From a virus (lineage: Duplodnaviria; Heunggongvirae; Uroviricota; Caudoviricetes), in the IMG/VR virus record IMGVR_UViG_2718218128_000001: 20,762 bases of DNA. One strand, 5' to 3'. Position numbers and translations under genes: made by a program. Below the pieces are notes generated by a model. That model had not been told where the DNA came from, did not search any database, and saw only the letters and a program-made list of their open reading frames with translations. Shown here piece by piece: positions 1,653-20,762 of the stretch (position 1 is the stretch's first letter; each line of letters starts with the position of its first letter).

Positions 1653-1665
1653 CGTTTAATCCCCC

Positions 1666-4590: not shown

Positions 4591-5135
4591 GATGTTTTTC
4601 TCTGCTCTGAATGGGGATTAATAACAGGCCAGCAGTGCTGACCGGTTAGGGAATTGTCCTGCAGACGCGAGACCGACCAGCGCATATCCCGCCACAGGTC
4701 ATCAATGGTGGTTTCGACGCTGTCGGCTTTTTTGTCACCCTTACCCGTGGCCTCAACCCCGCGATAACGCTCATACAGGGTGGCGGTCGCCATCGCCGTC
4801 ACGGCGCTGAGGTAGTGGAAAACGCGCACATTCTCGCCGTCGATTTCCTCGGCGTCAGGCACGTCGGCCAGTGTCTTAAACCCTGCGGCAATCTGGCGCA
4901 GCCGGTAGTCGTAAAGCTCCGCATTGGTTTCCGCCATGCCGGTCTTGATGGCGTTGCGCAGGCGCGCATCGGAAACCGTCTGCTCAAGGCGCATCAGTTC
5001 GCGCACCCGCTTCGGATCCACATCAGGGAAAAAGAACGTGTTTTTAATCACTGCGTCGCCCGTCTCCGGTGCGGGAATCACCACGCCCGGTACGTCCTGC
5101 GGTTCGTCGGGCTGATTCAGTATTACTGTCGTCAT
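4524..5135 (-). CDS. L: Head completion/stabilisation protein L with an aberrant C-terminal extension
   Basis: ORF directly downstream of terminase small subunit M, as in P2. The first ~165 aa look protein-like. The last ~40 aa (NSLTGQHCWPVINPHSEQRKTSWQKHHV...) are translated across the start region of E in another frame and look like read-through. Confidence 0.65.
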   Translation of the reverse strand: MTTVILNQPDEPQDVPGVVIPAPETGDAVIKNTFFFPDVDPKRVRELMRLEQTVSDARLRNAIKTGMAETNAELYDYRLRQIAAGFKTLADVPDAEEIDGENVRVFHYLSAVTAMATATLYERYRGVEATGKGDKKADSVETTIDDLWRDMRWSVSRLQDNSLTGQHCWPVINPHSEQRKTSWQKHHVKPLNLLIWLAMKLTP

Positions 5136-5228
5136 GACAACCTCATTAGGTTGGGCGGTGGACGCCGGTCGCCGTCAGGGTCAAAACCTGCTTTGACCGG
5201 CGTGCCGCCCGGCTCGGGGAGCGTTCAG

Positions 5229-5978: not shown

Positions 5979-5981
5979 GGT

Positions 5982-7049
5982 TTAGGCTCCGCTTTCCGGT
6001 GCTGCAGGTGCGGTGAAATCGCCCAGGGTGATGTTTTCCAGCAGGCACCCGGCGGCATACGCCTCGACCACATAGTCGATATTCATCGACTCGTAGTTTT
6101 CAACGCGGTCTTTTTTCGGGTTTTCATCAATGCTGCGGCGGTGGCTCTCATCCATGAAATAGATAGAGAGGTTTTCCAGCGTGGTCACTAACACGGCATT
6201 CGCCGGGAAGTACGGCACACGCACAGCAGGCAGGTTGCCGATTCGCTTCTGGCTGATGATGATATCTGCCGCAAGCGCCTCGCTGTTTTCCTGCGGCTTG
6301 TTCACCAGCGGGAAATATTTGTCGGCTAGCAGCTTACGGCCAACGATGGCAACGAGTTTCGGGTCATCCTGATAAACCTCGTCAATCAGGTTGTTGGTGG
6401 CGTCCATCACCAGCGCGTCGAGGTTCTCATAGTCGCCGTTTCGACCTACACGAATCACTGCTGAAACGACCTTACCGTCAGCGTCGGTGATGTTGCTCAT
6501 CACGCGCGTCGGGGCTTCATTGCGGTATTTCTGCAGCCAGCCGACGGCCACATCCTGCAGCATCGGATTTTTGGTGCGGTCAGAGGTGGCGGCGCGGGTG
6601 GTACCGTTAAAACCGGCCATGATGAAATCCAGTGCCTGACGTTTGACAATGGCGTCGCGGATGCGGCGCTGGAAGTCCTGAAAACGCGCCCACAGGTCGA
6701 GGGTTTTATATTTCAGATGGAAGTCAAAATTAATTTGGTCGCACTCGTACTTGTTGGACTCAAGCGCGGTGAAGTCGGCGGTCTTACGCTCATCATCGCC
6801 CGAGGTGTCGGTCGTGCTGGCGATAGTACCGGTCACACCGACGCCGATTTTCTCACCCTTCATTTCTGCGACCGGCAGAATATTAATCGTCTGCAGAAAC
6901 GCGGATGACTCCTGCACTTTGTTCATCAGTGTTTGCGTGACGGACGGCTCGACGGTGAATTTTTTACTGACGTCATCAGTGCTGATGCCGTTCAGCTCAG
7001 CGACGCGGGTCAGATAGGCATTGAACTTAAAACGGGTATCCGGGCGCAT
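5982..7049 (-). CDS. N: Major capsid protein
   Basis: 355-aa ORF (P2 gpN about 357 aa) between the scaffold and terminase small subunit genes. ATG start. Confidence 0.9.
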   Translation of the reverse strand: MRPDTRFKFNAYLTRVAELNGISTDDVSKKFTVEPSVTQTLMNKVQESSAFLQTINILPVAEMKGEKIGVGVTGTIASTTDTSGDDERKTADFTALESNKYECDQINFDFHLKYKTLDLWARFQDFQRRIRDAIVKRQALDFIMAGFNGTTRAATSDRTKNPMLQDVAVGWLQKYRNEAPTRVMSNITDADGKVVSAVIRVGRNGDYENLDALVMDATNNLIDEVYQDDPKLVAIVGRKLLADKYFPLVNKPQENSEALAADIIISQKRIGNLPAVRVPYFPANAVLVTTLENLSIYFMDESHRRSIDENPKKDRVENYESMNIDYVVEAYAAGCLLENITLGDFTAPAAPESGA

Positions 7050-7125
7050 AGTATTTCCTGTTTGAATTTATCGGTTAGTCACTGCATCGGGCGGGGATGC
7101 CGCCCGGTTTCTGGTCTGCGGTTTA

Positions 7126-7980
7126 TCAGCAGTCGGTCAGCAGCTCATCGCCACCACCGCCGCTGGCTTTCGTGCGTCGCGGCTGGCTGAAACTTTCGGT
7201 TTTATCGAGGGTGGTTTTCAGGTCGGAAAATGCCTGGCTGGTTTCTTCAACCTTGCCGGTCAGTTCCTGTTTGAAAGTGGCAAACGCGGTTTCCATAGCG
7301 GAAAGGCGCTCGTCCTGTTTTGTCAGGTTGGTTTGCACATGTTCGCTGACGGTGGTCACCGCTTCATGCACATCATTCAGGCGCGCATCGTCGCTGACCT
7401 GCTTACGGCTGAAAATGGCTTTCACCTTATCGGCCAGGCTGTTGAGCACCGTGTCGGGAACGTCTTCAAACTCCAGCTCGGCCAGAGTGGCAGCGGAAAA
7501 GACGTTTTCAGGGTTGGCCTTAAAGCGTTGCAGCGGGTTGTGCTTCGCGTTGCGGCAGAATTCGAGGTATTCAGTGCCGAGGCTCGCCGGGTCATCGGTG
7601 ACAGCAAGGCCGACGAGGTAGCATTTGCCGGTATTGGCAAAATTCGGCTGAATTTCCATTGAGGTGTAGACCTTCTGCAATTTTTTATTCATCGCAATCA
7701 GGTCGTCGGTTGGGGTGATTCTGGCGAACAGCGCCCATTTGCCGTTAAGCGCAGAATCGTCGTCAATTATTTCAGCTTTCAGTTCAACCACATCGCCTAA
7801 GCGTTTGAAGTCGCCATCAGGAAAGAGACCGCGAATATGCTCAAGGTTAATGCGGCAACCGTAGACGCGAGGGTCAAACGATTCGGCCATTTCCTGAATA
7901 TCGTTGCCGCTGATAATGCGGCCGTCGCAGGTGTCACCCTCGACGCCGATGCGAAAGAATTTTGAGACTTTTTTTGCCAT
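7126..7980 (-). CDS. O: Capsid scaffolding protein
   Basis: 284-aa ORF (P2 gpO is 284 aa), divergent from the terminase gene P as in P2. ATG start. Confidence 0.86.
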   Translation of the reverse strand: MAKKVSKFFRIGVEGDTCDGRIISGNDIQEMAESFDPRVYGCRINLEHIRGLFPDGDFKRLGDVVELKAEIIDDDSALNGKWALFARITPTDDLIAMNKKLQKVYTSMEIQPNFANTGKCYLVGLAVTDDPASLGTEYLEFCRNAKHNPLQRFKANPENVFSAATLAELEFEDVPDTVLNSLADKVKAIFSRKQVSDDARLNDVHEAVTTVSEHVQTNLTKQDERLSAMETAFATFKQELTGKVEETSQAFSDLKTTLDKTESFSQPRRTKASGGGGDELLTDC

Positions 7981-8145
7981 TGTCAGGAGTCCTGAGGTTA
8001 AGGTTACTGGTCACCGCCAGTTTCCAGACTCAGGACACGCCAGACCACCAATGACGACTGGACAACCGCCCACACAACAGCACCTTAGCGAATCACTGAC
8101 GGCCATTAAGTAGCCTTGCCCTGAATCCACTACGGCGAGGCATCA

Positions 8146-9915
8146 ATGACCATTTCCACAGATACAACCTTGTTGCATGACCCGCGACGGCAGGCATCGC
8201 TGCTTTACTGGCAGGGTTTTTCCGTGCCACAGATTGCCGAAATGCTGCAGGTCAAGCGCCCGACCGTGCAGAGCTGGAAGCAGCGCGACGGCTGGGACGG
8301 CATCGCGCCGATTTCCCGCGTTGAAAGCAGCCTTGAGGCTAGGCTGATTCAGCTCATCGCCAAGCCGCAAAAGACAGGGGGTGATTTCAAAGAGATTGAC
8401 CTGCTCGGACGGCAGATTGAACGGTTGGCGCGAGTCAACCGCTACAGCCAGACCGGCAACGAAGCCGACCTTAACCCCAACGTCGCCAACCGCAACAAAG
8501 GGGAGCGCAAAAAGCCGAAAAAGAATTTTTTCAGCGACGAGTCTATCGATAAACTAGAGGAATTATTTTTCGACCAGTCTTTCGAGTACCAGTTGCAGTG
8601 GTACCGCGCAGGACTGGAGCACCGTATTCGTGACATTCTCAAATCCCGCCAGATTGGCGCGACATTCTATTTCTCCCGCGAGGCACTGCTGCGCGCACTC
8701 AAAACCGGCCATAACCAGATATTTTTATCAGCCAGTAAAACGCAGGCTTACGTGTTCCGCGAATACATCATCCAGTTTGCGCGACTGGTCGACGTTGACC
8801 TGACTGGCGACCCGATTGTCATCGGTAACAACGGCGCAAAACTGATTTTTCTCGGTACCAATTCCAACACCGCGCAGAGCCATAACGGCGATCTGTATGT
8901 CGATGAAATATTCTGGATCCCGAATTTTCAGAAACTGCGCAAAGTCGCCTCGGGCATGGCCTCGCAAAAGCACCTGCGCTCGACCTATTTTTCGACACCT
9001 TCCACGCTGGCGCACGGCGCTTACCCCTTCTGGTCTGGCGAGCTGTTCAACAAGGGGCGCAGCCGGATTGCCGACCGCATCGAAATCGACATCAGTCACA
9101 GCGCGCTCGCCGGTGGCCAGCTCTGCGACGATGGCCAGTGGCGGCAGATTGTCACCATTGAGGACGCCCTTGCGGGTGGCTGCACCCTGTTCGACCTCGA
9201 CCAGCTCAAACGCGAAAACAGTGATGAGGACTTTAAGAACCTGTTTATGTGCGAGTTTGTCGACGATAAAGCGTCGGTATTCCCGTTCGAGGAGCTGCAG
9301 CGCTGCATGGTCGATGTGATGGAGGAATGGGAGGACTTTGCCCCGTTCGCCGACCATCCGTTCGGCTCTCGTCCTGTCTGGATTGGCTACGACCCGTCAC
9401 ACACCGGCGACAGTGCCGGGTGCGTCGTGCTCGCGCCGCCGGTGGTCTCTGGTGGCAAGTTCCGCATGCTGGAGCGCCACCAGTGGAAGGGCATGGATTT
9501 TGCAGCACAGGCAGAGGGCATCCGCAAGCTGACCGAGAAATACAACGTTGAATACATCGGCATTGACGCAACCGGCCTCGGTCTCGGCGTGTTCCAGCTG
9601 GTGCGCTCATTTTACCCGGCGGCACGCGGCATCCGTTACACACCTGAAATGAAAACCGCAATGGTACTCAAGGCGAAAGACACCATTCGCCGTGGCTGTC
9701 TGGAGTACGACGCCGGAGCAACCGACGTCACGCAGTCGTTTATGTCCATCCGCAAAACCATGACTAGCAGCGGGCGCAGCGCCACCTATGAGGCCAGCCG
9801 CACCGAGGAAGCCAGCCACGCCGATATCGCATGGGCGACCATGCACGCCCTGTTAAACGAACCGCTTTCTGCCGGTAGCGGCATGCAGCCTAAATCTATT
9901 CTGGAGTTCAACTAA
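8146..9915 (+). CDS. P: Terminase large (ATPase) subunit
   Basis: 589-aa ORF (P2 gpP about 590 aa), divergent from O and immediately followed by the portal gene (2-nt spacing). Confidence 0.9.
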   Translation: MTISTDTTLLHDPRRQASLLYWQGFSVPQIAEMLQVKRPTVQSWKQRDGWDGIAPISRVESSLEARLIQLIAKPQKTGGDFKEIDLLGRQIERLARVNRYSQTGNEADLNPNVANRNKGERKKPKKNFFSDESIDKLEELFFDQSFEYQLQWYRAGLEHRIRDILKSRQIGATFYFSREALLRALKTGHNQIFLSASKTQAYVFREYIIQFARLVDVDLTGDPIVIGNNGAKLIFLGTNSNTAQSHNGDLYVDEIFWIPNFQKLRKVASGMASQKHLRSTYFSTPSTLAHGAYPFWSGELFNKGRSRIADRIEIDISHSALAGGQLCDDGQWRQIVTIEDALAGGCTLFDLDQLKRENSDEDFKNLFMCEFVDDKASVFPFEELQRCMVDVMEEWEDFAPFADHPFGSRPVWIGYDPSHTGDSAGCVVLAPPVVSGGKFRMLERHQWKGMDFAAQAEGIRKLTEKYNVEYIGIDATGLGLGVFQLVRSFYPAARGIRYTPEMKTAMVLKAKDTIRRGCLEYDAGATDVTQSFMSIRKTMTSSGRSATYEASRTEEASHADIAWATMHALLNEPLSAGSGMQPKSILEFN

Positions 9916-9916
9916 A

Positions 9917-10963
9917 ATGGGTAAACAAAAATCCCGTAAAGCCAACGCACAAAAGGCCAGCAAACCACAACAACTGACCGCCAGCGCACCGCCAAAAACG
10001 ACAGCGTTCACCTTCGGCGAGCCGGTGCCGGTACTCGATAAGCGCGACATTCTGGATTACGTCGAATGCATCAGTAACGGCAAATGGTACGAGCCGCCGG
10101 TCAGCTTCTCAGGGCTGGCAAAGAGCCTGCGCTCTGCCGTGCATCACAGCTCGCCAATTTATGTTAAGCGTAACGTGCTCGCGAGCACCTACATTCCGCA
10201 CCCGTTGTTATCCCGTCAGGATTTCAGCCGCTTTGCGCTCGATTATCTGGTGTTCGGTAACGCCTTTCTTGAGCAGCGCCACAGCGTCACCGGCCAGTTA
10301 ATCAAACTGCTGGCCTCGCCAGCCAAATACACCCGACGCGGAGTCGACGATTCGATTTTCTGGTTTGTGGAAAACTTCACCCAGCCGCACGAGTTCGCGC
10401 CTGATACCGTGTTTCACCTGCTGGAGCCCGACATTAATCAGGAGATTTACGGTCTGCCGGAATATCTCAGCGCGCTTAATTCCGCTTGGCTGAATGAATC
10501 CGCGACGCTGTTCCGCCGCAAGTATTATCAGAACGGCGCGCACGCAGGCTACATCATGTATGTGACTGACCCGGCGCAAAGTGCGACCGACGTCGAATCG
10601 CTGCGCGAGGCGATGCGTAACTCGAAGGGACTCGGCAACTTTAAGAACCTGTTTTTCTACGCCCCCGGCGGAAAACCGGACGGCATCAAAATCGTGCCAC
10701 TGAGCGAGGTCGCCACAAAGGATGACTTTTTCAACATTAAGAAAGCCAGCGCCGCCGACCTGATGGACGCGCACCGCGTACCGTTCCAGCTCATGGGCGG
10801 CAAGCCCGAGAATATCGGTTCACTCGGTGACGTTGAGAAGGTGGCAAAGGTATTTGTGCGCAATGAGCTGTCGCCGCTACAGGACAGGTTCAGGGAGGTA
10901 AACGACTGGCTCGGCATGGAGGTCATCAGGTTCAAAGAGTACACCCTCGATAATCCGGAATAA
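9917..10963 (+). CDS. Q: Portal protein
   Basis: 348-aa ORF (P2 gpQ about 344 aa) downstream of P. ATG start at 9917. Confidence 0.9.
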   Translation: MGKQKSRKANAQKASKPQQLTASAPPKTTAFTFGEPVPVLDKRDILDYVECISNGKWYEPPVSFSGLAKSLRSAVHHSSPIYVKRNVLASTYIPHPLLSRQDFSRFALDYLVFGNAFLEQRHSVTGQLIKLLASPAKYTRRGVDDSIFWFVENFTQPHEFAPDTVFHLLEPDINQEIYGLPEYLSALNSAWLNESATLFRRKYYQNGAHAGYIMYVTDPAQSATDVESLREAMRNSKGLGNFKNLFFYAPGGKPDGIKIVPLSEVATKDDFFNIKKASAADLMDAHRVPFQLMGGKPENIGSLGDVEKVAKVFVRNELSPLQDRFREVNDWLGMEVIRFKEYTLDNPE

Positions 10964-10973
10964 TCACCACTCT

Positions 10974-10992
10974 AGCCGCCAGCATGGCGGCT
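10974..10992. terminator. GC-rich hairpin between convergent Q and the cargo gene (possible bidirectional terminator)
   Basis: AGCCGCC-agcat-GGCGGCT is a perfect 7-bp stem with a 5-nt loop, lying between the Q stop (10961..10963) and the convergent stop at 10994..10996. There is no U-tract, so this is weak as an intrinsic terminator. Confidence 0.3.
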
Positions 10993-10993
10993 C

Positions 10994-11719
10994 TCAATCG
11001 TGAGTGGATATTTGCGAAACAAACTCTTTAACTCCATCTCGTTCAAGTATTTTACTGTCATGGATATACTTTACGATATCCCACTCGTAGTATGTACAAG
11101 CCATTGCAACTAAAGATATTATTTTTATGTCAGTTAAGTTAACTAATGTTTCATAATAATCTTCCCGTTCAACCCCGCAATTATCTATCAACTTCACAAT
11201 CAAATAAAAGCGACGCACCACTGAAAAAATGCAATCATTAGCATCCACTTCACTTAACCACTTTGTTATTACCTCTTTTTTTACCTTGGCTTTAACTAAA
11301 ATTACAATATTATCTTCAAGATAAGTTACGGCTGCACCACTTGTAAATTCTTCGACCACCCCGTCAGTTTGTCCATCAATATCACCAACTTGAACACAAA
11401 ACCTTTCAAAGTTAGAATCCTGACATTCAACCAAATGGAAAAATCTCACTTCAAATTTTTTATACTCTTCTAAAGATTCTTGCCTTTTTACTTCATCGAT
11501 CAGGCTGGAATTAGCCTCCCTTTGAAGTTTTATTGAATTTATAAGGAGGTAAATTGTAATAAATGAAAGTATAGGGTTGACGACACCACCCAAATAATCA
11601 CCAAACTGCGCCCAAACATCAGTCTTGCTGGATAAATGTCCGTTTACTCCGAAGTTGAAGTAATACAAGGCGCACACAGCTACAATCACGCCAGCCGAAG
11701 ACAGCAACACCTTTCTCAT
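10994..11719 (-). CDS. Hypothetical membrane protein of cargo cassette: two N-terminal TM helices plus ~180-aa soluble domain; candidate effector
   Basis: 241-aa ORF with ATG start overlapping the upstream gene's stop (ATGA). Hydrophobic segments at about residues 5-25 and 44-62. The region is AT-rich, unlike the phage backbone. No family recognised by eye. Confidence 0.6.
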   Translation of the reverse strand: MRKVLLSSAGVIVAVCALYYFNFGVNGHLSSKTDVWAQFGDYLGGVVNPILSFITIYLLINSIKLQREANSSLIDEVKRQESLEEYKKFEVRFFHLVECQDSNFERFCVQVGDIDGQTDGVVEEFTSGAAVTYLEDNIVILVKAKVKKEVITKWLSEVDANDCIFSVVRRFYLIVKLIDNCGVEREDYYETLVNLTDIKIISLVAMACTYYEWDIVKYIHDSKILERDGVKEFVSQISTHD

Positions 11720-12534
11720 ACAGTTTCAACCATACGGATTAGATATTTCACCACATCACCACTTTTTACTACAACTTTGCTAACAGTAAGTTTTAGATAT
11801 GTGTAGTTATCTTGCCTGCCATTATTATTGTGTAAATTTAATGAGACCAATCTTTTTTGAGCGGCGGGTATAGCCTTTAAAGGCATGTAAAAACCAAAGG
11901 CTACTGTATCATCTTCACCTTCGATAACTAACCTACCATTTCCAGTTCTCGCATTAAATCGAGTAATAACTGCGTTAATATTAACTTGACCGGGCTTTAT
12001 TTTTGATTGTGTCAAGTTTGTAGCAGTCATTGTGTCTAACTTTGCTATTCTTTGTTTTCCAGCAGGTTTTTTATAGTTAAGTTCAACATCAAAGTTTTTT
12101 TGAAGATTTATCCTATGCATCCTTACCAAAGGTTGTCTGATACGATCAATAAGTTCATCTTCAATTTCCTCAAGCTCCTCAATAATTCCTGCAGCTTTTG
12201 GAGATAGCTCCTTAGTTTCCAGATATAGAGATTCAGAAATAAAATACCCCATGACTTCCGAGAACACAGAACGGGTCATTTTTTTTAATTCGGCAGCTAA
12301 TTCCGGCTCATTAACAATCAAGTCGAAGTTTTGACCATAAGAACTTTTAAAGCTTTGTTTGAGAACCGCTCGCGCAGGGTTAACATGAGTGCGGCGCTTA
12401 ATAATTTTTTTTCTGAGTATTGCCTCTGCTAGTATGCATGTCACCTCAGCCGTTCCAGAGAGGGTATCAAGGCCATACTCCATATCAACTTCTTGATCAC
12501 CACTTTTGATGACAACGTCATAGCTAACTTTCAT
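11716..12534 (-). CDS. Hypothetical soluble protein of cargo cassette; candidate sensor or enzymatic component
   Basis: The ORF track starts at GTG (12540). The ATG two codons in (12534) is preceded by AAGGA at 7-nt spacing, giving about 272 aa. No TM segments, and no nucleotidyltransferase or nuclease motif recognised by eye. AT-rich. Confidence 0.6.
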   Translation of the reverse strand: MKVSYDVVIKSGDQEVDMEYGLDTLSGTAEVTCILAEAILRKKIIKRRTHVNPARAVLKQSFKSSYGQNFDLIVNEPELAAELKKMTRSVFSEVMGYFISESLYLETKELSPKAAGIIEELEEIEDELIDRIRQPLVRMHRINLQKNFDVELNYKKPAGKQRIAKLDTMTATNLTQSKIKPGQVNINAVITRFNARTGNGRLVIEGEDDTVAFGFYMPLKAIPAAQKRLVSLNLHNNNGRQDNYTYLKLTVSKVVVKSGDVVKYLIRMVETV

Positions 12535-12597
12535 CGGCACATCCTTGATTTAGTAACCTTTGGTTATTATTTTTCATCTTCTACTCATTGACACCGA

Positions 12598-12626
12598 TTT
12601 TTTACACCAAAAATATCAAATTGCAA
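12598..12626 (-). promoter_or_regulatory. Candidate sigma70 promoter for the cargo cassette
   Basis: Minus strand reads TTGCAA, a 16-nt spacer, then TAAAAA, about 60 nt upstream of the cargo start codon, in an AT-rich leader. Found by eye only. Confidence 0.3.
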
Positions 12627-12642
12627 GTGTGTGCTGCGCGCA

Positions 12643-12661
12643 ATGCTTTCCCCGCCACGCC
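12643..12661. other. cos-like site (19-nt cohesive end sequence)
   Basis: Plus-strand ATGCTTTCCCCGCCACGCC is the reverse complement of GGCGTGGCGGGGAAAGCAT. That matches my recollection of the phage 186 cohesive end and differs at 2 positions from P2 (GGCGAGGCGGGGAAAGCAC). It lies in a ~450-bp non-coding GC-rich stretch, in the expected place between Q and A. Confidence 0.6.
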
Positions 12662-12826
12662 TGCCCGCTTTACGGGGCGGTTTTAATGCAGTTGCATGAA
12701 CACTCGGGATCCGCGCCAGCTCTGGCGGCGCACGGTCAGAACGGGCAACCCCTGCGAATGCAAAAGCATGCACCTGTTGCATGCACGGCTAAAAACGGGG
12801 AAATCGCGGAAAAATGGCATAAAAAA

Positions 12827-12845
12827 CCGGCATTCACGGTGCCGG
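12827..12845 (-). terminator. Rho-independent terminator for minus-strand transcription
   Basis: CCGGCA-ttcacgg-TGCCGG hairpin flanked by AAAAAA on the plus side, which is a TTTTTT tract after the stem on the minus strand. It lies downstream of the small minus-strand ORF at 12986..13177. Confidence 0.45.
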
Positions 12846-12985
12846 TTTGGGGCTGGTTTTGTCGCGATTACTGGGCGTGTAATGCGCCAATAACACTATT
12901 GAGGCACATGCTGGCAAAAATCAGCAGAAAAATCGTCGTCCACCGATTTTCATAAACGAGAGATAACATATTGATATAGATCCTT

Positions 12986-13177
12986 TTATTTGTGCATTCT
13001 AATGTGGTTTAACAGGTGTTTGATAACGACCGTAAGCTCATCTTTACTGGCTTGCTCGACCATTTTTTCGGTGTAGCTTTCCACCTCACGAGAACTCAGG
13101 TCGTTATTTGAAGCCATTACGGTCAGCTTTTTTGCCCAATCGGCAAACGGGTCTATCGATGAAAGGGAATTATGCAT
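12986..13177 (-). CDS. Small hypothetical protein (about 63 aa from the internal ATG)
   Basis: ORF with a GAGG Shine-Dalgarno-like sequence upstream of the ATG at 13177 and a terminator-like hairpin downstream. The start overlaps the divergent gene's start on an ATGCAT palindrome. No family recognised. Confidence 0.3.
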   Translation of the reverse strand: MHNSLSSIDPFADWAKKLTVMASNNDLSSREVESYTEKMVEQASKDELTVVIKHLLNHIRMHK

Positions 13178-13607
13178 GTCCAAAAACCTCGAATTATTTA
13201 ACCAGCAGACGGCGGAAATTTTTGCGGTGTTATGGGATAACTTCCCGGTGCCGCAGGTCATCACCTACGAAAAATTTAACGCCGTGCTACCTGATGACTA
13301 CTTTGACCAACTTAACTCACCGGAAATGAAAGCACTGAATCAGTTGCGTAGTGTGGTTGAGGGTACATTCACTTTTCTCAGTGAAAACGGCTACATCCAA
13401 TATGAAACAGACCATCAGACTTATTTTCGGGATGTGCGCCTGACCGAGAAAGCACTCGCCGTGCTCAACAAAAAGCCCGAGGCACTCGGCGGTAGTGAAA
13501 CGATGGGCGATAAGATTATCAGTGCGGTGAAAGACGGGACACCCGGAGTTATTGCAGGTGCGGTGACAAACCTGCTTTCACTCGGTGTCAATCTGGTAAC
13601 CAACTAA
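13176..13607 (+). CDS. Hypothetical protein, 143 aa (accessory gene)
   Basis: ATG start with a good AAGGGA Shine-Dalgarno sequence 7 nt upstream. It is on the opposite strand to the flanking phage operons and has a hydrophobic C-terminal segment (GVIAGAVTNLLSLGVNLV). No family recognised. Confidence 0.5.
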   Translation: MSKNLELFNQQTAEIFAVLWDNFPVPQVITYEKFNAVLPDDYFDQLNSPEMKALNQLRSVVEGTFTFLSENGYIQYETDHQTYFRDVRLTEKALAVLNKKPEALGGSETMGDKIISAVKDGTPGVIAGAVTNLLSLGVNLVTN

Positions 13608-13673
13608 CGCCTCGCGTGGCTCGTTGTTCAACCCGTCAGCACTGAAAGCAAGTTTCAGCACCGGCGGCGTTTG

Positions 13674-13907
13674 TTAATGCAGCCAGCTATCGTCCTCCCA
13701 TACCTGCTGCATGATTTCCATTACTCGTTTTTTATCTTCGTCCAGTTTCAAACCGCTTAGTTCAACGCCATTAGCGGAGCCCTTGCGAATTCGGATAGCA
13801 GTCTTTGGGTAAATAGGTTGAAGATTGCGGTACAGTTCAGCCTCAAGTGCATCCAATGTTGCCTGACTAATTTTTTGCTCTTTATCCAACGTGATATTGA
13901 TTCTCAT
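13674..13907 (-). CDS. DinI-family protein (Tum-like antirepressor candidate)
   Basis: 77 aa, alignable by eye to E. coli DinI: MRI.VT. at the N-terminus, DAL..EL.R..Q in the middle, EDK.R..EI.Q..WE near the C-terminus. Downstream of a LexA box. Confidence 0.8.
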   Translation of the reverse strand: MRINITLDKEQKISQATLDALEAELYRNLQPIYPKTAIRIRKGSANGVELSGLKLDEDKKRVMEIMQQVWEDDSWLH

Positions 13908-13910
13908 AAT

Positions 13911-14093
13911 CTAATCAGCCTTATAAAAATTATCATCTTCGGTTTCGTTATTTTCGCTGTTTGCTAGGTCTGCAATGAGAGTGAGCGCGAGCTTTAAGTC
14001 TGATGGCTTGCAGTTTGCAATCAGAGATACCTCGGCAATAAATTGCACACAAGCCCACTTTTGCTGCGTTCGGCTGAAATGTTCGCCAACCAT
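13911..14093 (-). CDS. Small hypothetical protein (60 aa), first gene of the LexA-box operon
   Basis: ATG start preceded by a strong GGGAGGGA Shine-Dalgarno sequence. Its stop lies 3 nt before the DinI-like start, suggesting coupling. The LexA box is about 20 nt upstream. Confidence 0.45.
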   Translation of the reverse strand: MVGEHFSRTQQKWACVQFIAEVSLIANCKPSDLKLALTLIADLANSENNETEDDNFYKAD

Positions 14094-14112
14094 GAAATCC
14101 CTCCCATAGGGT

Positions 14113-14132
14113 TACTGTATGTTTATACAGTA
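14113..14132. promoter_or_regulatory. LexA (SOS) box
   Basis: TACTGTATGTTTATACAGTA has perfect CTGT-N8-ACAG spacing and matches 17 of 20 positions of the consensus TACTGTATATATATACAGTA. It sits between the stop of gene A and the 60-aa/DinI-like operon. Confidence 0.75.
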
Positions 14133-14206
14133 GCACGTATTGGCAAAAGATGGGAAGAAAAAAAACGAATAGAGCGATTGCTGTATGTGCATGATATGGA
14201 TATGAA

Positions 14207-16429
14207 TTACTCATGTATTGGTTTTGATTCTTCAGCCATCGCCGCAACACGATTAAGGATTTTCCGAGCTTTAGCCTCATGCGATGGTGCTGCGGAAAAT
14301 ATTTCTCCTTTGGCCGTTCCGCGTAGCCATTTACCATCAAAACAACTTTTACCACCGGCCATCAGGTGCAGGGCTTCGCCCCGGCTGATATTAATGCCGG
14401 TTGTCAGATGTATCTCATCGATAGTTTTAGCTATAGCTGCGTTTTGCTCATCCGTTCCGTGGATGAATTTTCGCCGTGCTGCTGGCTTTTGCTTCCTGAG
14501 TCGGTTGGTCAATTCTCGTCTTTCACGCCGACTCAGTGGTTTTGTTAAATCCAGTATCGGTGGATCGCTTTCGCTTCCCGTACAGTTATTGACAGAACTC
14601 CGAGGGACGGCTTTGCCGTCCTGAAGGTCAACGGCCAAATCAACAGCACGCTTCGGAACAATCTTCCACTGAGTGAGCCGGGTTAAAATCGGGCTTCCTG
14701 CACCTATGGAGGAATCGTAGACCCCCTTAATACATACCGTTTCCTCACCGTACTGATTAAGCTCGGTACGCGGTTCATACAGTGTGCGCACCTGTAAATC
14801 ATCGCGACGGACAAACGGCCCACCCTGAGCATTAACATAACCAGCCCAGTCACCAGCGTCGGCGGCATCATGGACGGCGGCAAACTCAACGCTCAGACCG
14901 TGCGCGGTTTCGGTATCAGCGAGGCGACGCAACTCACGGTAAACCGTCACCGGCGCACCACCAATAAACTGAAACTGACGGATGTGCCAGCGCGCAGCCC
15001 ATGCTGAAACGGCGGGGGCTGTCTCTTTCAGCAGCTCACCGCTTTCATCATCGGTTTCACCATCGAGAGCATAACCGTCGATATTTTTTGAAATGTATTT
15101 AGCAACATAGCCGGTTGCGCTGCCTTTCTCCGGGTCAATGGACTCCGCGTGGAAACGTGCTTTTTGGGATTTATCGCTTTTCAGTTCGTGGCGGTCTTCT
15201 TTCCATGCGTATTTACGGACGATGGAGCGAACATATTCAACATCTTCCGGCAGCATGAACATCAGCATGTGCCAGTGTGGAGTGCCGTCGTGATGGGGCT
15301 CGGCGACACGAATACCGAAAATACGGACATCTTCCCGATGTAGTTTGGCACGGATACGCGCCCAGATACCGGTTAGATAGTTTTGCGTGTCAGCCGGGCT
15401 GGCACCGCTCCATTTGCTGTTACGGTAACCGGCTTTAGTCGTGGCGTGATATTTTGACGGCGCGGTTAGAGTGTAAAACTCACCGACATAACCGAGCTCA
15501 TTACAGATGTTTTCAAACCCACGAATGCGGGTCATGAGCTCACAGCGGCGAATCGCAGGGTTAGCAACTGAGCCATCATATTTTTCAATTAGGCTGATAC
15601 GGTTGCCGTCTTCGTCTTCGAGATCCAGACCTTTGAGAAATTCACGAGTGCGGCGCTTTTGTTCACGCCAGTCAGTCACGCAGTTTTTACTCGCGTAAGT
15701 GTTTTTTTTCTTACTGACGTTGCCGACTGCAATTTGCAGGTGTTCGCGCCACGTAGCTGCTACACGGCGCAAACGACCGCGCCACCACCCATCGTTAAAC
15801 ATTTTGGCGATAGCCGGTGCGATTTCATCCGCACCGACATATTTTTTTTCAACCCGCTCCCAATGTGGTGGGATAACGTTGAATTGGAGGGAAATAAAGC
15901 CAGCACGAATATACCAGGTGTACAGCGTTTTAAGCTCGCCGAATCCGTGGTCATTAATGTTGGCAAGTTCACCACGAATGAAATTAGCAATATCAGCGGC
16001 CAACAGGTCAACATCAGCGCGCGACATGTCCGGGAGACGGTTATATCGGGCGACCATATTAACCATGCGTGACGACAGATATTGCATTTGCTGAGTATCA
16101 AAATGACTTCCAAAAACAGCGGTTGATACCTTGCTGTTGATACCAGCGCATTCGTATTTTTTTGCGACCAGTTCAAGACGCGGCAATGCCTTTTTGCAGA
16201 AGCTGATTAAAAATGCATTGGCTCGTTGACTACCCTGATTTTGTTCCAGCACCGCAGCAGTGCGATAAACATCTAACCGCACGCAGTCGGGCTGGAGAGA
16301 AAGCACCTTTTTTGCATGCAGCAAAGCCGCGAACATACGGTCGCGGCGATGCTGTTGCTCATAAGTAAGGTATGGGCTGGAGATTGCCGACCGTGGGACG
16401 TTCCACGGATAAGCGAATTGAACAGCCAA
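14207..16429 (-). CDS. A: Replication initiation protein A (rolling-circle HUH endonuclease)
   Basis: 740-aa ORF (P2 gpA about 761 aa) with an HUH motif (GTPHWHMLMF) and a Tyr-containing active-site-like region (GYVAKYISKNIDGY). The ORF as drawn starts at TTG, so the exact start is uncertain. Confidence 0.9.
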   Translation of the reverse strand: MAVQFAYPWNVPRSAISSPYLTYEQQHRRDRMFAALLHAKKVLSLQPDCVRLDVYRTAAVLEQNQGSQRANAFLISFCKKALPRLELVAKKYECAGINSKVSTAVFGSHFDTQQMQYLSSRMVNMVARYNRLPDMSRADVDLLAADIANFIRGELANINDHGFGELKTLYTWYIRAGFISLQFNVIPPHWERVEKKYVGADEIAPAIAKMFNDGWWRGRLRRVAATWREHLQIAVGNVSKKKNTYASKNCVTDWREQKRRTREFLKGLDLEDEDGNRISLIEKYDGSVANPAIRRCELMTRIRGFENICNELGYVGEFYTLTAPSKYHATTKAGYRNSKWSGASPADTQNYLTGIWARIRAKLHREDVRIFGIRVAEPHHDGTPHWHMLMFMLPEDVEYVRSIVRKYAWKEDRHELKSDKSQKARFHAESIDPEKGSATGYVAKYISKNIDGYALDGETDDESGELLKETAPAVSAWAARWHIRQFQFIGGAPVTVYRELRRLADTETAHGLSVEFAAVHDAADAGDWAGYVNAQGGPFVRRDDLQVRTLYEPRTELNQYGEETVCIKGVYDSSIGAGSPILTRLTQWKIVPKRAVDLAVDLQDGKAVPRSSVNNCTGSESDPPILDLTKPLSRRERRELTNRLRKQKPAARRKFIHGTDEQNAAIAKTIDEIHLTTGINISRGEALHLMAGGKSCFDGKWLRGTAKGEIFSAAPSHEAKARKILNRVAAMAEESKPIHE

Positions 16430-16430
16430 T

Positions 16431-16652
16431 TTATACCCCCCGATAGTGTTTGTTTTTTAGCTCTGCGATTTGCTGGCAGGTTACGCAAAAAGCCACGCCC
16501 GGAATCGCAATGCGGCGAGCTTCCGGGATTGGTGCGTCACATTCCTCGCAAAGAAAACGGGAAGGTGCAGCGATACGGGTGCGTGCGTTGCTGATGTGGC
16601 GTTCGCGGTCTTCCTGCTCGCGCAGTTGTGCTAAATCCATTGCGTCGGCCAT
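16431..16652 (-). CDS. TraR/DksA-family C4 zinc finger protein
   Basis: 73 aa with CEEC-x17-CVTC at the C-terminus. It sits immediately upstream of gene A, where P2-like phages carry a small zinc finger ORF. Confidence 0.7.
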   Translation of the reverse strand: MADAMDLAQLREQEDRERHISNARTRIAAPSRFLCEECDAPIPEARRIAIPGVAFCVTCQQIAELKNKHYRGV

Positions 16653-16879
16653 TAGTGCAGCTCCTGTGATTCATTCTCAAAGCGGGTTGCTTCACGGCGC
16701 AGCAGTTCGGCAGCTTCGGTGCCGCTCATTCCCTCTCTGGTAATATGGATAGCCAGCGCCTCAAGGCGGATGGAAACAGCGAGCGCGCGGTCTTTACGCT
16801 CTTCTTTTTTTGCATCGGTCAGCAATACGGCCAGCGCATCGCTATCAGTGTTAAAACTACGGATTTCGGTATTACGCAT
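16652..16879 (-). CDS. Hypothetical early-operon protein (75 aa)
   Basis: ATG start with a strong AGGAGAG Shine-Dalgarno sequence. Stop overlaps the next gene's start. Confidence 0.5.
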   Translation of the reverse strand: MRNTEIRSFNTDSDALAVLLTDAKKEERKDRALAVSIRLEALAIHITREGMSGTEAAELLRREATRFENESQELH

Positions 16880-16946
16880 AATTAACTCTCCTGATTTCGG
16901 GCAATAAGATGCCCGGCGGGTTTACGCCATTAAATTTCTGTTTGGA

Positions 16947-17285
16947 TTAATTCGGCATGGTTAGCCGTTTGGGAAATAAGCTCACTACTGCACGAAAATG
17001 ATTCATCGCTGTAATAAGCGCCTTTTTCTCGTCAGTAGTCAGCTCACTTAATTCGAGTTCATGACGAGCCGCCGGTATTTTTGCCAGAAAGAAAATAGCG
17101 GCCAGCGCCCGATTATTTTCTTCAAATTGTGGGGCACGTTTATCGCGCATATCATCGACAAAACGTTCAACCTCTTTCCAGCTATCGCCCCAATATCTCG
17201 CGCGCAATTCGGCAACATGATTGAGACCGGCCAGACGTTCACCCGCTTTTAGCGGAACAGTCGCGGAAACAGCTTCGATAGCCAT
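16947..17285 (-). CDS. Hypothetical early-operon protein (112 aa)
   Basis: ATG start with a G-rich Shine-Dalgarno-like sequence, co-directional with the early operon. Confidence 0.45.
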   Translation of the reverse strand: MAIEAVSATVPLKAGERLAGLNHVAELRARYWGDSWKEVERFVDDMRDKRAPQFEENNRALAAIFFLAKIPAARHELELSELTTDEKKALITAMNHFRAVVSLFPKRLTMPN

Positions 17286-17449
17286 GATCCCCCCCGCTTT
17301 TGAGTAGAGAGGCCAGCCAGTAAATCAGCCTGCGAGTGGCTCGGGTGCCAGCGCTTGCCGTCCTTACCTGCGATCCAGCCGTGGCCGTAGTGCATGCCGG
17401 GGCTTTGCTTAACGAGCAGAGATGCGAATGACGGTTCACTTTTCAGCAT
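17249..17449 (-). CDS. Hypothetical small protein (about 66 aa from the ATG at 17449)
   Basis: The ORF track starts at GTG (17455). The ATG two codons in has a GAGGTG Shine-Dalgarno sequence. It overlaps the next ORF by 37 nt. Confidence 0.35.
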   Translation of the reverse strand: MLKSEPSFASLLVKQSPGMHYGHGWIAGKDGKRWHPSHSQADLLAGLSTQKRGGSWLSKLFPRLFR

Positions 17450-17456
17450 ACGCACC

Positions 17457-17966
17457 TCAAATCAGACCAAACGATGCGCCAATACCGCTCATGGTATCGA
17501 CCACGCTCGACATAGCTGGATTAGTCTGCAGACGTGCATGCAGAGCCAGAGCCGACAATGACAACATGCGAATGCCGGAGTTAACGCTTTCAATCATGTT
17601 GTGCTTACGGGCAATGGTCAGACGTTCATCAGATACCGCGCCGCTCGCCAGTTCGCCGAGTTCACGCATTGCGCGCATGACATAAGACTGCAATTTGTCT
17701 TTAGCCAACTCATTAACCGGCACGCATGGTAGGCAGTGAATCTGCGCTAAAAAACCATCAATGAGGGTTGAGTCTTCGGTCAGGTCAGTCAGCAGCCACA
17801 ATTCAGACGGCGTGAACTGGTGAGGCTGTTCCGGGTTGAGCTTGTTACGTAACGTTTGAACGTTCATACCTGCACGCTTGGCCAGCTTCGCCATATTGTG
17901 ACGCTGTGCGAAAATGCGGCATGCTTCGTCATAGTGGGGATGTTTGGAAACCTGAAAATCAAACAT
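17457..17966 (-). CDS. cII: Phage regulatory protein CII (186-type)
   Basis: The ORF track starts at TTG (17996). The ATG at 17966 has an AGAGGGAA Shine-Dalgarno sequence and gives 169 aa beginning MFDFQVSKHPHYDEA, matching my recollection of 186 CII in both length and sequence. Confidence 0.75.
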   Translation of the reverse strand: MFDFQVSKHPHYDEACRIFAQRHNMAKLAKRAGMNVQTLRNKLNPEQPHQFTPSELWLLTDLTEDSTLIDGFLAQIHCLPCVPVNELAKDKLQSYVMRAMRELGELASGAVSDERLTIARKHNMIESVNSGIRMLSLSALALHARLQTNPAMSSVVDTMSGIGASFGLI

Positions 17967-17998
17967 GGTTAAATTCCCTCTAACTTGCATAATCAAAT

Positions 17999-18370
17999 TC
18001 AGTTAAGAGCGGTGCGCTGGTCGATGTAGCGACAATCAATCGCTTGTTGAGTCAGCTTATCGCGCCATGCTTTTACGTTTACGAGGGTTCGGCTTCGTTT
18101 AGCAGCTTCCTCTTTGTTGGAAAAGTCTTTGGTCGGAGCTTTGAGAAGGACTCCCTCATCGAGCCATTGCCAGACCAGACGCTCGCTAACACCGCGAGTA
18201 GCGGCGAAGTCTTTCACAGTCATCGTGTCTGACATAGCGGAGCGAATCATTGTCTGTAGAGCTGGCAGCATGGCGGTAACGATGGCATCAAACTGTGTTG
18301 GATCTAGCAGCACAGTTTGATTTTGTGAGTTTTGCGAGTCGTGCGTCGAGATTGATTTTGCATCTGACAT
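17999..18370 (-). CDS. Apl/Cox-like excisionase or early regulator (putative)
   Basis: First gene of the early operon, divergent from the repressor gene. Contains an HTH-like segment (MTVKDFAATRGVSERLVWQWLDEG). At 123 aa it is longer than 186 Apl or P2 Cox, so the start may be internal. Confidence 0.45.
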   Translation of the reverse strand: MSDAKSISTHDSQNSQNQTVLLDPTQFDAIVTAMLPALQTMIRSAMSDTMTVKDFAATRGVSERLVWQWLDEGVLLKAPTKDFSNKEEAAKRSRTLVNVKAWRDKLTQQAIDCRYIDQRTALN

Positions 18371-18491
18371 ATCGCATTATCTCCTGTTGTTTGAAATGTA
18401 GTGCAGTGGTGTGCATCTTGGTCGATGAATGCCACTATAGATCGTAAAAAGTTTTCTGTAAACACCCATAAAATTATCTGTAGGGGTTTTT
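18371..18491. promoter_or_regulatory. Lysis-lysogeny switch region (divergent promoters and operators)
   Basis: 121-bp intergenic region between the divergent Apl/Cox-like and CI-like genes. CTGTA-containing motifs recur (ttctgtaaac, atctgtaggg) and there is a TGCA-N7-TGCA element. Individual operators not resolved. Confidence 0.4.
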
Positions 18492-19352
18492 ATGAGTTCT
18501 GAGCTTGATGTTCAGTGGCGTGTTAGTGCAACGAACGGCGTATTGGAACGCTTAATGTCAGCCTATGGGGTCAAGATGCAAAAGGATTTGGCTGACCTGC
18601 TAGGTATCGCTAAACACAGCGTTAGCGGCTGGGTTCAGCGTGATGCAATACCTGGCAATGTCATAGTTAGGTGTTGTCTTGACACGGGAGCTGATATCAA
18701 TTGGCTTGTAAATGGAGAACTTGCAAATGCAAATCACGAGCGAGCCAGTTGCAAGTTAAAAGGCAAAGAGCTTTATGACGAGATTATGACGAATGGTGGT
18801 AAAACCGTTTTGCGTAGGATTCTTGATGCGTATGGCTTTACCATGCAAAAGGAGCTCGGTGATTTGCTCGGCATTTCCTCTGGCACAATTAGCACATGGG
18901 TAAGGCGAGATTTTTTCCCTGGTGATGTTGTTGTTACATGCGCTCTTGATACCGATACGTCACTGGAATGGTTAGCAACAGGCAAGGGGCAAATGCGAGC
19001 TAACAGGGAAGATGTCACATCTGGTTTTTCTATTAAAAAATCTCGTCTTGAATCTGGTGAGCTTAAGGATGCAGGAACGTGGCATCCTGACCCCTCAATG
19101 ATTCCTTCTAACTCAGGGGAATTGATTTTTGTTGACGGTGTAGCTGCCTCTTGGCTTGTCGACTGTTCTGCTTCGAATATAAGTAATGGTCGCTGGTTAA
19201 TTGATATCGACGGCGCTCTTGATGTTTTTGATGTAATTCGCTTGCCCGGTGGAAAAGTCAGGTTGTCAAATAAGTCTGCTGAGTTTGAATGCAACATTAC
19301 AGACATTACTCCTGCCGGGGCTGTAGTTTTCACATTGGAAAAACACGTGTAA
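18492..19352 (+). CDS. cI: CI-type immunity repressor with duplicated N-terminal HTH domain
   Basis: 286 aa, same strand as integrase and divergent from the early operon. Residues ~14-75 and ~105-166 are clear internal repeats (LERLMSAYGVKMQKDLADLLGI..SGWV.RD versus LRRILDAYGFTMQKELGDLLGI..STWVRRD). No GDSM-like serine motif was seen in the C-terminal domain. Confidence 0.7.
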   Translation: MSSELDVQWRVSATNGVLERLMSAYGVKMQKDLADLLGIAKHSVSGWVQRDAIPGNVIVRCCLDTGADINWLVNGELANANHERASCKLKGKELYDEIMTNGGKTVLRRILDAYGFTMQKELGDLLGISSGTISTWVRRDFFPGDVVVTCALDTDTSLEWLATGKGQMRANREDVTSGFSIKKSRLESGELKDAGTWHPDPSMIPSNSGELIFVDGVAASWLVDCSASNISNGRWLIDIDGALDVFDVIRLPGGKVRLSNKSAEFECNITDITPAGAVVFTLEKHV

Positions 19353-19360
19353 GGGACATT

Positions 19361-19699
19361 ATGAAATGTAAACTCTTTTTAGCTCTGCTTCTTACCCTTT
19401 CTTTTGGAGCCTCAGCCGCTGAAAAAACACAGGATTTAGATGGCGCTAAGTTTGGTGAGGATTGGCCGTTAACTTTTGAAAAAGCTACGGTGTCTTGTGT
19501 CAACGGTAAATATGCCTTTGTGTACGACAAAGCAACAGATGACCGATACCCATTAAATGGTTTTGCGATTGATGGAGTAAAGTCTGGAAAGCTTGAGGGG
19601 AGCAATATTGATACTGTTTGGAAAGATAGCCCGGAGTATGCAGGCGTAAAAATTCCTTTGGATCCTGTAATGGATGCTGCAACAGCACTTTGGGAATAA
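19361..19699 (+). CDS. Small secreted protein (signal peptide), possibly YebY/DUF2511-like; moron candidate
   Basis: ATG at 19361 gives MKCKLFLALLLTLSFGASA followed by AEK, a typical Sec signal peptide. The mature region has W..F...TVSC..G and YPLNG, resembling YebY-type periplasmic proteins from memory. Lies between the repressor and integrase genes. Confidence 0.5.
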   Translation: MKCKLFLALLLTLSFGASAAEKTQDLDGAKFGEDWPLTFEKATVSCVNGKYAFVYDKATDDRYPLNGFAIDGVKSGKLEGSNIDTVWKDSPEYAGVKIPLDPVMDAATALWE

Positions 19700-19721
19700 T
19701 TAGAGTTGCCTCGGTGACATT

Positions 19722-20762
19722 ATGACTGTAAGTAAGCAAAAAAATGGCAAATGGTTATGCGAGCTCTATCCAAATGGTCGAGAAGGGCGGCGTATACGTC
19801 GGCAATTCAATACCAAAGGTGAGGCCGAGGCATTCGAAGCATTTACGAAAAGTGAGAGTGAGGATAAGCCGTGGCTCGGCAAGAAAGAAGACCGCCGACG
19901 CTTAAGTGAGATTATCCAGCTTTGGCATAATTTACACGGACAGGCACTGGTCGCCAGTAAGTCGCGGTTAGCTAAACTTCAAATCGTGTGTAATGGACTT
20001 GGTGACCCTATTGCATCCCGCCTTACTGCTAAAGATTGGGCTCATTACCGTGACCGCCGACTTCGGGGGGAGATAGATAATGGCTATCATAAAGACCCGG
20101 CAAAATGGATTGCTAAACCGATAACTGTCAATCGTGAGCAACAATATCTTGAGGCTGTATTTAATGAGCTCAAAAGGCTAGGGGAGTGGAGCTTACCAAA
20201 TCCACTTGATGGAGTCCGTGTTTTCAAGGAAGCCGAGAAAGAAATGTCTTGGCTCACTTTGTCTCAAATTCCGAAATTGTTTCAGGCATGCGAGCAATAC
20301 GGAAAAGAAGACCTCACCATGATTGTTAAGATTTGTCTTGCAACAGGTGCTAGATGGGGTGAGGCTGAGAGGTTGACACGTCCCCAGCTCTCGCCACATA
20401 AACTGACCTTCACCAAAACGAAAGGGAAAAAGAATCGAACCGTTCCGATCCCAAAATGGTTGTATGACGAATTATCTGAAAGGCAGGGAAAGATGTTTAA
20501 GCCTTGCTATCAGGAGTTTAAAAAGATGCTCAAACTAACGGATATCGAACTGACGGAAGGGCAAAAGACACACGTTCTGCGTCATACCTTCGGCGCTCAT
20601 TTTATGATGAATGGCGGGAATATTCTTGTGCTGCAACGTATACTCGGTCATGCGAATATTCGTGAAACTATGAAGTATGCACATTTCTCCCCGGATCATC
20701 TTGAGGAGGCTGTAACATTTAATCCTTTAACATTATGTAATGGTTTTAAATGGAAAGATTAA
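19722..20762 (+). CDS. int: Tyrosine integrase (P2-type)
   Basis: 346 aa with tyrosine recombinase motifs: LATGARWGEA (Arg), HVLRHTFGAHF (His-x-x-Arg) and ETMKYAHF (catalytic Tyr). It reads toward the window end, where the att site would be. Confidence 0.9.
   Translation: MTVSKQKNGKWLCELYPNGREGRRIRRQFNTKGEAEAFEAFTKSESEDKPWLGKKEDRRRLSEIIQLWHNLHGQALVASKSRLAKLQIVCNGLGDPIASRLTAKDWAHYRDRRLRGEIDNGYHKDPAKWIAKPITVNREQQYLEAVFNELKRLGEWSLPNPLDGVRVFKEAEKEMSWLTLSQIPKLFQACEQYGKEDLTMIVKICLATGARWGEAERLTRPQLSPHKLTFTKTKGKKNRTVPIPKWLYDELSERQGKMFKPCYQEFKKMLKLTDIELTEGQKTHVLRHTFGAHFMMNGGNILVLQRILGHANIRETMKYAHFSPDHLEEAVTFNPLTLCNGFKWKD

Follow-up and report, generated by a model that had tools for sequence, protein, structure and literature searches.

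IMG/VR virus record IMGVR_UViG_2718218128_000001 (Caudoviricetes), whose whole stretch of 20,762 nucleotides (nt) is referred to here as the window, encodes a small protein of the DUF2511 family between its immunity repressor gene cI and its integrase gene int. The open reading frame (ORF), as read from the sequence, runs on the + strand from an ATG at 19361 to a TAA at 19697-19699 and specifies 112 amino acids (aa). The gene is already known: it is orf28 (gp28) of Salmonella phage PSP3 (NP_958085.1), to which the window copy is 92% identical, it belongs to PHROG 2950, its product has a RefSeq entry (WP_001394631.1, in Escherichia coli EC1) and its genomic context has been published. At least 1000 public contigs encode exactly this protein. 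The gene is probably a gp28-type accessory gene that has long resided in the lysogenic (cI-int) operon of PSP3/186-like Peduoviridae, and the allele carried by the window may be crippled.

The protein matches Pfam family DUF2511 (PF10709) above the gathering threshold of 21 bits, with a score of 59.5 bits and an E value of 4.5e-16, its residues 29-110 covering positions 5-86 of a profile of 87, and it matches PHROG 2950 (phrog_2950, function unknown) over its full length with 174 bits. Because of these two matches and of a low ratio of nonsynonymous to synonymous substitution rates (dN/dS), the ORF is a real gene and not a chance reading frame. The antisense ORFs at 19330-19605 and 19500-19739 were discarded as true genes, since both the family match and the dN/dS pattern fit the + frame. 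A 136-aa reading from the ATG at 19289 was discarded as well, as it starts inside cI, lacks a ribosome-binding site and is used by no annotated relative; the annotated relatives all start at MK(R/H/C)K.

The only relative of solved structure found by sequence is E. coli YebY (7N0J; phmmer E 3.4e-6). AlphaFold, given an alignment of 105 sequences, yields a model that has a predicted local distance difference test score (pLDDT) of 89.6 and displays the antiparallel beta-sheet packed on helices that characterizes the YebY/MlbQ fold. In Foldseek this model superimposes on 7N0J over 92 columns (E 1.6e-8, target-normalised template modelling (TM) score 0.90, root-mean-square deviation 1.2 A), and the second structural match is MlbQ (2MVO; E 6e-4, 24% identity, query-normalised TM 0.63). 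The protein is therefore a member of the DUF2511/YebY-fold family. It is matched by no NCBIfam model and by no PADLOC entry, and nothing in the BFVD viral fold library matches it at E <= 0.001.

The N-terminus, MKCKLFLALLLTLSFGASA followed by AEK, has the features of a signal peptide in a rule-based analysis: an n-region MKCK with a charge of +2, a hydrophobic core of 11-13 residues (L5-F15, Kyte-Doolittle up to 2.6) and an AXA site formed by A17-S18-A19 before A20, with neither a lipobox nor a second hydrophobic segment. In the alignment of homologues the hydrophobic core is variable and A20-E21 is invariant, and in the AlphaFold model residues 1-20 are disordered (pLDDT 56-60) and the fold starts at residue 22 with a pLDDT of 96-98. 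E. coli YebY has been located experimentally in the periplasm (PMC8689200). The DUF2511 protein of the window would thus be exported by the Sec pathway; its predicted mature form contains no His, one Met and one Cys.

The three genes cI, DUF2511 and int all lie on the + strand, with 8 nt between the cI stop and the DUF2511 start and 22 nt between the DUF2511 stop and the int start. The Shine-Dalgarno (SD)-like motif of the middle gene overlaps the cI stop codon (Table 1), an arrangement by which its translation may be coupled to that of cI. No + strand promoter or terminator consensus was found between cI and int, and the + strand terminator-like matches of the scanned operon are located inside int only. 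A search with Rfam at gathering thresholds returned nothing across the whole window. Upstream of cI, a candidate pL is located inside the 5' end of the apl-like gene and faces a pR-like promoter, which is the geometry of the annotated face-to-face pL and pR of phage 186. This candidate scores below the threshold of the standard promoter scan, and may be regarded as a weak candidate for the lysogenic promoter. The pR-like promoter, which corresponds in position to pR of 186, would drive the apl/cox-like gene and cII. In phage 186 the lysogenic operon is annotated as pL/pE, cI, int, orf69 and a terminator.

These results agree with most of what the original prediction had proposed from the sequence. 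It had placed a 112-aa ORF at exactly these coordinates and between these flanking genes, and had described it as co-oriented with them in the lysogenic operon, which the short gaps and the absence of a + strand promoter or terminator between cI and int bear out. Its suggestion of a YebY/DUF2511-type protein was right, as judged by the Pfam profile match and by the fold, and the Sec signal peptide that it had noticed finds support in the rule-based features, the conservation pattern and the low pLDDT of the first 20 residues.

Table 1. Coordinates of the features discussed in the text, numbered from the first letter of the window
Feature	Positions	Strand	Remarks
ORFs without an assigned family	10994-11719; 11716-12540; 13176-13607	-; -; +	Between the portal gene and gene A
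Candidate pL lysogenic promoter, TTGATT-17-CATTAT	18352-18380	+	Relaxed scan only, 8/12 matches
pR-like early lytic promoter, TTTACA-17-TATAGT	18434-18462	-	Consensus scan, 10/12 matches
cI, immunity repressor	18492-19352	+	286 aa; tandemly duplicated helix-turn-helix (HTH); Pfam two Phage_CI_repr and Phage_CI_C
SD-like AAGGGA of the DUF2511 gene	19351-19356	+	Read from sequence; overlaps the cI stop codon 19350-19352
Signal peptide, residues 1-19, MKCKLFLALLLTLSFGASA	19361-19417	+	Rule-based; predicted signal peptidase I cleavage after ASA
Mature YebY-fold domain and stop codon	19418-19699	+	93 aa, 10.2 kDa, isoelectric point 4.4; Pfam PF10709, 7N0J match
Cys46 codon, TGT	19496-19498	+	Invariant family Cys, 131/132 aligned members; aligns with YebY Cys48
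GATACCCATT	19545-19554	+	Intact in the window; 10 base pairs (bp) deleted in the frameshifted sister allele
Codon 111, TGG (Trp)	19691-19693	+	TGC (Cys) in PSP3, 613R3 and E. coli strain 222
int, P2-type tyrosine integrase	19722-20762	+	346 aa; Pfam Int_N and Phage_integrase; last gene of the operon within the window

Distribution and age of the gene

Homologues of gp28 are present in phages SEN1, SW9, SI22, Midge, RCIP0057 and vB_EcoM-613R3 (613R3), always in the order cI-gp28-int. PSP3 gp28 and these homologues (PHROG 2950) are the same 112-aa gene as that of the window, with 71-94% identity, the same synteny and the same short gaps. Among 313 phage records with a P2-type integrase, selected at E <= 1e-40, ten bear a DUF2511 gene; these ten correspond to seven phages, which are exactly those with an integrase more than 90% identical to that of the window. 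The window integrase is 89-93% identical to the integrases of PSP3, SW9, Midge, RCIP0057 and 613R3, and its CI is 98% identical to CI of PSP3 and 100% to that of 613R3. Every sampled member of the PSP3-like lineage carries the gene. It is also found in 43 of 5426 complete E. coli genomes, where all copies are chromosomal and always arranged as cI-DUF2511-int; in strain EC1 the locus is inside a prophage that adjoins yfiB/dgcN. More distant relatives are encoded directly after cI, both those in 186-like prophages (P0007, P0011 and P0013, 63-72% identity) and P0019, P0020 and P0021 (56%, 36% and 37%), and a further one (P0023, 36%) is found in the immunity region of another P2-like element. One of these homologues, P0011, is indexed in 1924 collection blocks, mostly from Salmonella.

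Since only ten of the 313 records carry it, the gene is accessory, lineage-specific cargo and not a family-wide core gene. cI and int adjoin, or are separated by no more than 78 nt, in 186, Fels-2, Gegevirus ST437-OXA245phi4.1, Cartapus and ESSI2_ev040. The original prediction had stated that the two genes are normally adjacent in P2-like phages, and had conceded that universal presence of the gene in the phage family would speak against inserted cargo; the interval comparison shows the slot empty in these five phages and the gene far from universal. Its description of the gene as an inserted moron holds in part. The gene is indeed an extra one between genes that are adjacent in relatives, so that its accessory nature stands, but it is neither a recent insertion nor a classical moron. 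The latter follows from the lack of a promoter and terminator of its own, as the gene is embedded in the operon, and of any shift in base composition or flanking repeats. The GC content is 0.42-0.43 for the DUF2511 gene, 0.43-0.47 for cI and 0.43-0.50 for int, with averages of 43% for the gene and 45-46% for its neighbours, the whole lysogeny module being AT-richer than the rest of the phage in the GC profile. In a search for repeats, neither direct nor inverted copies were detected on the two sides of the gene, so that an insertion scar is absent.

The gene is under purifying selection, with pairwise dN/dS values of 0.08-0.27 for the whole gene and 0.04-0.18 for the mature part, similar to those of cI. 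As relatives down to 36% identity occupy the same slot, dN/dS is around 0.1 and no GC shift is detected, the cargo is an old one that has long resided between cI and int. A segment V-x-SGK (residues 72-80) is common to the phage clade and enterobacterial YebY and is a gap in most other family members, and P0021 is 42% identical to E. coli YebY; for these two reasons, the phage gene was probably captured from an enterobacterial yebY long ago. Capture by imprecise excision was considered but is not supported, because the phage copy at L023/L024 is only 32% identical to the adjacent YebY and the gene is not att-proximal. The locus in question (GCA_032164335.1, 1-4975) is a degraded P2-like remnant with cI, a DUF2511 gene (P0020) and a bPH/SHOCT gene; a distance of 3.5 kb, which includes a truncated integrase, separates it from the copD-yebY genes of the chromosome.

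Judged by its contents, the cI-int slot is a cargo site. In two lineages (L017 and L023) an additional bPH/SHOCT gene follows the DUF2511 gene in the slot, and in Klebsiella phage 4LV2017 (Elveevirus; L019, locus 3864-5520) two unrelated ORFs of 349 and 201 aa are located between CI and int, the first of them with no Pfam family. Other cargo of Peduoviridae lysogenic operons, namely 186 orf69, the RES protein of Cartapus, the Abi protein of ev040 and the two ORFs of 4LV2017, is variable and accessory and rides the cI-int transcript as the DUF2511 gene probably does, although it is mostly positioned downstream of int and consists of unrelated proteins. When the window is compared with 613R3, synonymous divergence (dS) is saturated in int (1.24), low in cI (0.04) and intermediate in the DUF2511 gene (0.18), a pattern suggestive of a recombination boundary located at the gp28/int junction or close to it. 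The window Int has 346 aa, and Int in the phage records has 349 aa.

The Trp111 allele and its sisters

The DUF2511 family has two conserved cysteines, of which the window protein retains only the first. Of the 132 aligned family members, 126 have Cys in column 111, and Trp is confined there to the window protein and a second variant (P0001) that occurs on 8 contigs; all other close homologues have Cys111, including the gp28 proteins of PSP3, SEN1, SW9, SI22, Midge, RCIP0057 and 613R3. In YebY, Cys48 and Cys113 form a disulfide, and replacement of either Cys results in no protein expression (PMC8689200). Because the mature window protein has one Cys only, it is unable to form a Cys46-Cys111 disulfide.

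A further step is seen in seven complete E. coli genomes (H91-H97), which are 97.8% identical to the window region and span 451 instead of 461 bp. The one of the seven that was inspected, Ecol_545, carries the same allele, from which the 10 bp GATACCCATT and with them the conserved RYPL motif have been lost. Its gene is annotated as frameshifted by RefSeq, and it shares the protein accessions of cI and int with EC1. The replacement C111W, the frameshifted sister and the missing tail and lysis genes of the window, taken together, suggest that this lineage can dispense with the gene and that it may be decaying there. The chances that the window allele is destabilised or non-functional appear evenly balanced.

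Several observations weigh against a crippled allele. Eleven complete genomes have an intact Trp111 ORF, and it is present on at least 1000 contigs, so that the residue may be tolerated. Outside codon 111 there is no nonsynonymous excess, the dN/dS (omega) of the mature part being 0.04 between the window and 613R3, and a general relaxation of selection is not apparent. AlphaFold models the Trp111 protein with confidence, although a model driven by a multiple sequence alignment cannot assess stability. It could hence be argued that the window copy is fully functional, Trp111 being tolerated or even adaptive, for instance by leaving a free, reactive Cys46 thiol or by allowing dimerisation. The same intact genomes, the contigs with the exact protein, the 8 contigs with the P0001 variant and the confident model are in favour of this idea, but Cys111 is retained almost throughout the family, the corresponding Cys mutants of YebY are not expressed, seven sister prophages (one of them inspected) went on to a frameshift, and the high contig count may reflect a single heavily sequenced clone. 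Full function is accordingly the less probable explanation, and a crippled allele is preferred in what follows.

Candidate roles in the lysogen

In a lysogen, the gene would be transcribed with cI and int both from a pL-type maintenance promoter and from a CII-activated establishment promoter. Sec would export the product, and cleavage behind Ala19 would then leave a soluble, acidic protein of 10 kDa in the periplasm. The ancestral protein was probably a small periplasmic binding module, and the copy in the window would be carried along in a prophage that is also devoid of tail and lysis genes. As regards what such a module might do, comparison with known systems would put superinfection exclusion first, a YebY-like effect on copper second and immunity to peptides third.

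Superinfection exclusion at the periplasmic stage of DNA entry is favoured, still tentatively and by analogy of position, because the P2-like phage K139 has a non-homologous periplasmic exclusion protein, Glo, just upstream of int. In this Vibrio phage (Longwoodvirus) the order is PL, cI, orf2, glo, int, and Glo is a signal-peptide protein annotated as periplasmic and involved in phage exclusion; it has been described as a soluble periplasmic exclusion protein (PMC3952083). It differs from the window protein in its 137 aa and in the extra orf2 between cI and glo. Glo was also considered as a distant DUF2511 member, and this was rejected with an hhalign probability of 0.4% and only a sub-threshold Pfam match. 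The window gene, for its part, encodes a protein with predicted export in a lysogenic operon beside repressor and integrase, as do the genes of such exclusion proteins. Sie2009-type exclusion genes are also positioned in the lysogeny module. Ltp of phage TP-J34 is likewise an exported protein that the prophage produces from a gene of its lysogeny module, and it blocks DNA injection (PMC3952083). Ltp and Sie2009 are, however, lipid- or membrane-anchored proteins of unrelated sequence and fold, from siphoviruses of Gram-positive hosts. Two points speak against exclusion: homology to a known exclusion or defence protein was found neither by hhalign against Glo, nor in PADLOC, nor in BFVD at E <= 0.001, and the low dN/dS lacks the signature of an arms race.

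A different role is suggested by the family itself. YebY is the third gene product of the yobA-yebZ-yebY (AZY) copper-uptake operon of E. coli and combines, as the window protein does, a DUF2511 domain with a Sec signal peptide; both have W35, C46, YPLNG, SGK and W87 in common (numbering of the window protein). Hosts such as E. coli, Salmonella and Klebsiella carry AZY operons. The phage protein could then be an extra, constitutive YebY paralogue that damps copper import by YebZ (CopD) and YobA (CopC) of the host, which would alter the copper load of the lysogen and copper-dependent mar induction. Apart from the common family and fold, this is consistent with the V-x-SGK segment shared by the phage clade and enterobacterial YebY, with the identity of P0021 to YebY, and with the finding that YebY lowers copper accumulation when co-expressed with YebZ; the chromosomal protein lowers YebZ-dependent copper accumulation and has been proposed to be a safety valve (PMC11923076). 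Nevertheless, the identity of the window protein to YebY is only about 29-32%, its disulfide partner is missing, and residues able to bind metal are reduced to one Cys and one Met, with no His in the mature protein. YebY itself binds copper weakly and only when reduced, and the CI/recombinase context of DUF2511 genes has been listed as unrelated to copper homeostasis (PMC8689200). The window gene is part of a phage lysogenic operon with cI and int as neighbours instead of AZY genes, and no yebZ or yobA travels with the phage. A mimic of YebY is for these reasons rather improbable, and exclusion remains the preferred role.

Binding of a toxic peptide outside the cytoplasm, by which the lysogen would be protected from a peptide antibiotic or bacteriocin, is considerably less probable still. 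It is suggested by the second-best structural match, MlbQ (2MVO, 6QFP), a lantibiotic self-resistance protein of Microbispora of the same family and fold that acts outside the cytoplasm by ligand binding and has been proposed to self-protect by direct binding of the lantibiotic NAI-107 (PMC8689200). MlbQ is, in contrast, an actinobacterial lipoprotein with a long linker, from a Gram-positive source and encoded with ATP-binding cassette (ABC) transporters in an immunity operon (PMC8689200); the match is limited to 24% identity and a query-normalised TM of 0.63, and there are no bacteriocin or transporter genes near the window gene. A core phage function in the lysogeny decision, integration or excision can hardly be credited: the gene is present in every sampled phage or prophage with this integrase type and is tightly packed between cI and int, but DNA transactions of the cytoplasm are out of reach for a protein exported to the periplasm, integrated prophages with frameshifted alleles persist, and related phages do without the gene.

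A broader proposal, which has to be seen as doubtful, is that phage DUF2511 proteins are widespread, unrecognised soluble periplasmic lysogen-protection factors, analogous to Glo, that would intercept the ejection proteins of an incoming phage, or copper or peptide stress. The YebY fold would here be a general periplasmic interceptor module captured by phages from enterobacterial yebY, and the natural alleles with Trp111 or the frameshift would mark a stepwise loss of function in defective prophages undergoing domestication.

The literature offers little on the phage proteins. No study of phage copies was found among the papers mentioning DUF2511 in the searched collection, a search for DUF2511 together with prophage gave only an unrelated paper, and a 2011 paper on P2-like regulatory regions makes no mention of orf28/gp28 (PMC3448106). 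Proteomics mentions of DUF2511 were set aside as uninformative, since one peptide is of the chromosomal YebY type and the other is of untraceable origin. The gene is common among prophages and phage-borne DUF2511 proteins have no assigned function. If exclusion is true, P2-like phages would have a second soluble exclusion protein of the periplasm, unrelated to the first. If the effect is YebY-like, prophages would tune copper import and, through mar, the antibiotic tolerance of enteric pathogens (PMC11923076). The window gene by itself is cargo of an ordinary kind that is already annotated, and its allele is probably decaying within a defective prophage. The naturally occurring alleles that have lost the disulfide or carry the frameshift could be used as ready-made controls.

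The surrounding prophage

The window is closely related to the EC1 prophage. Positions 4654-20762 are 99.96% identical to it, and the whole window (1-4655 plus 4654-20762) equals that prophage at 99.9% identity minus 9,661 bp. The missing segment comprises the genes for tail tube, sheath, tail fibres and baseplate, S/R, spanins, lysozyme, holin and X, and it extends into L, from which the final 28 nt are gone. L is the head-completion gene, and the deletion junction at 4654/4655 has a 2-nt overlap. This junction is found in none of the 5426 complete E. coli genomes. The gap reflects either a defective prophage or an artefact of assembly or splicing.

The window CI has two PF07022 HTH domains, and the corresponding DNA repeat is located at 18561-18607 and 18828-18874 with a spacing of 267 nt. 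CI proteins of 186 and Fels-2 have one HTH domain and 192-210 aa. Most DUF2511-bearing prophages have the long CI, and a short CI is found in L026. At the apl/cox position, 17999-18370 on the - strand encodes a protein of 123 aa that reaches the threshold of no Pfam family; its PSP3 counterpart has been described as a singleton of the Cox/Apl type in which a conserved domain is not detectable (PMC3448106).

The ORFs that separate the portal gene (9917-10963) from replication gene A (14207-16429) have no Pfam or PADLOC family (Table 1). One of them, at 10994-11719 on the - strand, gives a weak ZorB/MotB-like match (E 0.002). The interval from the portal gene to A is known as a variable hotspot of P2-like phages.

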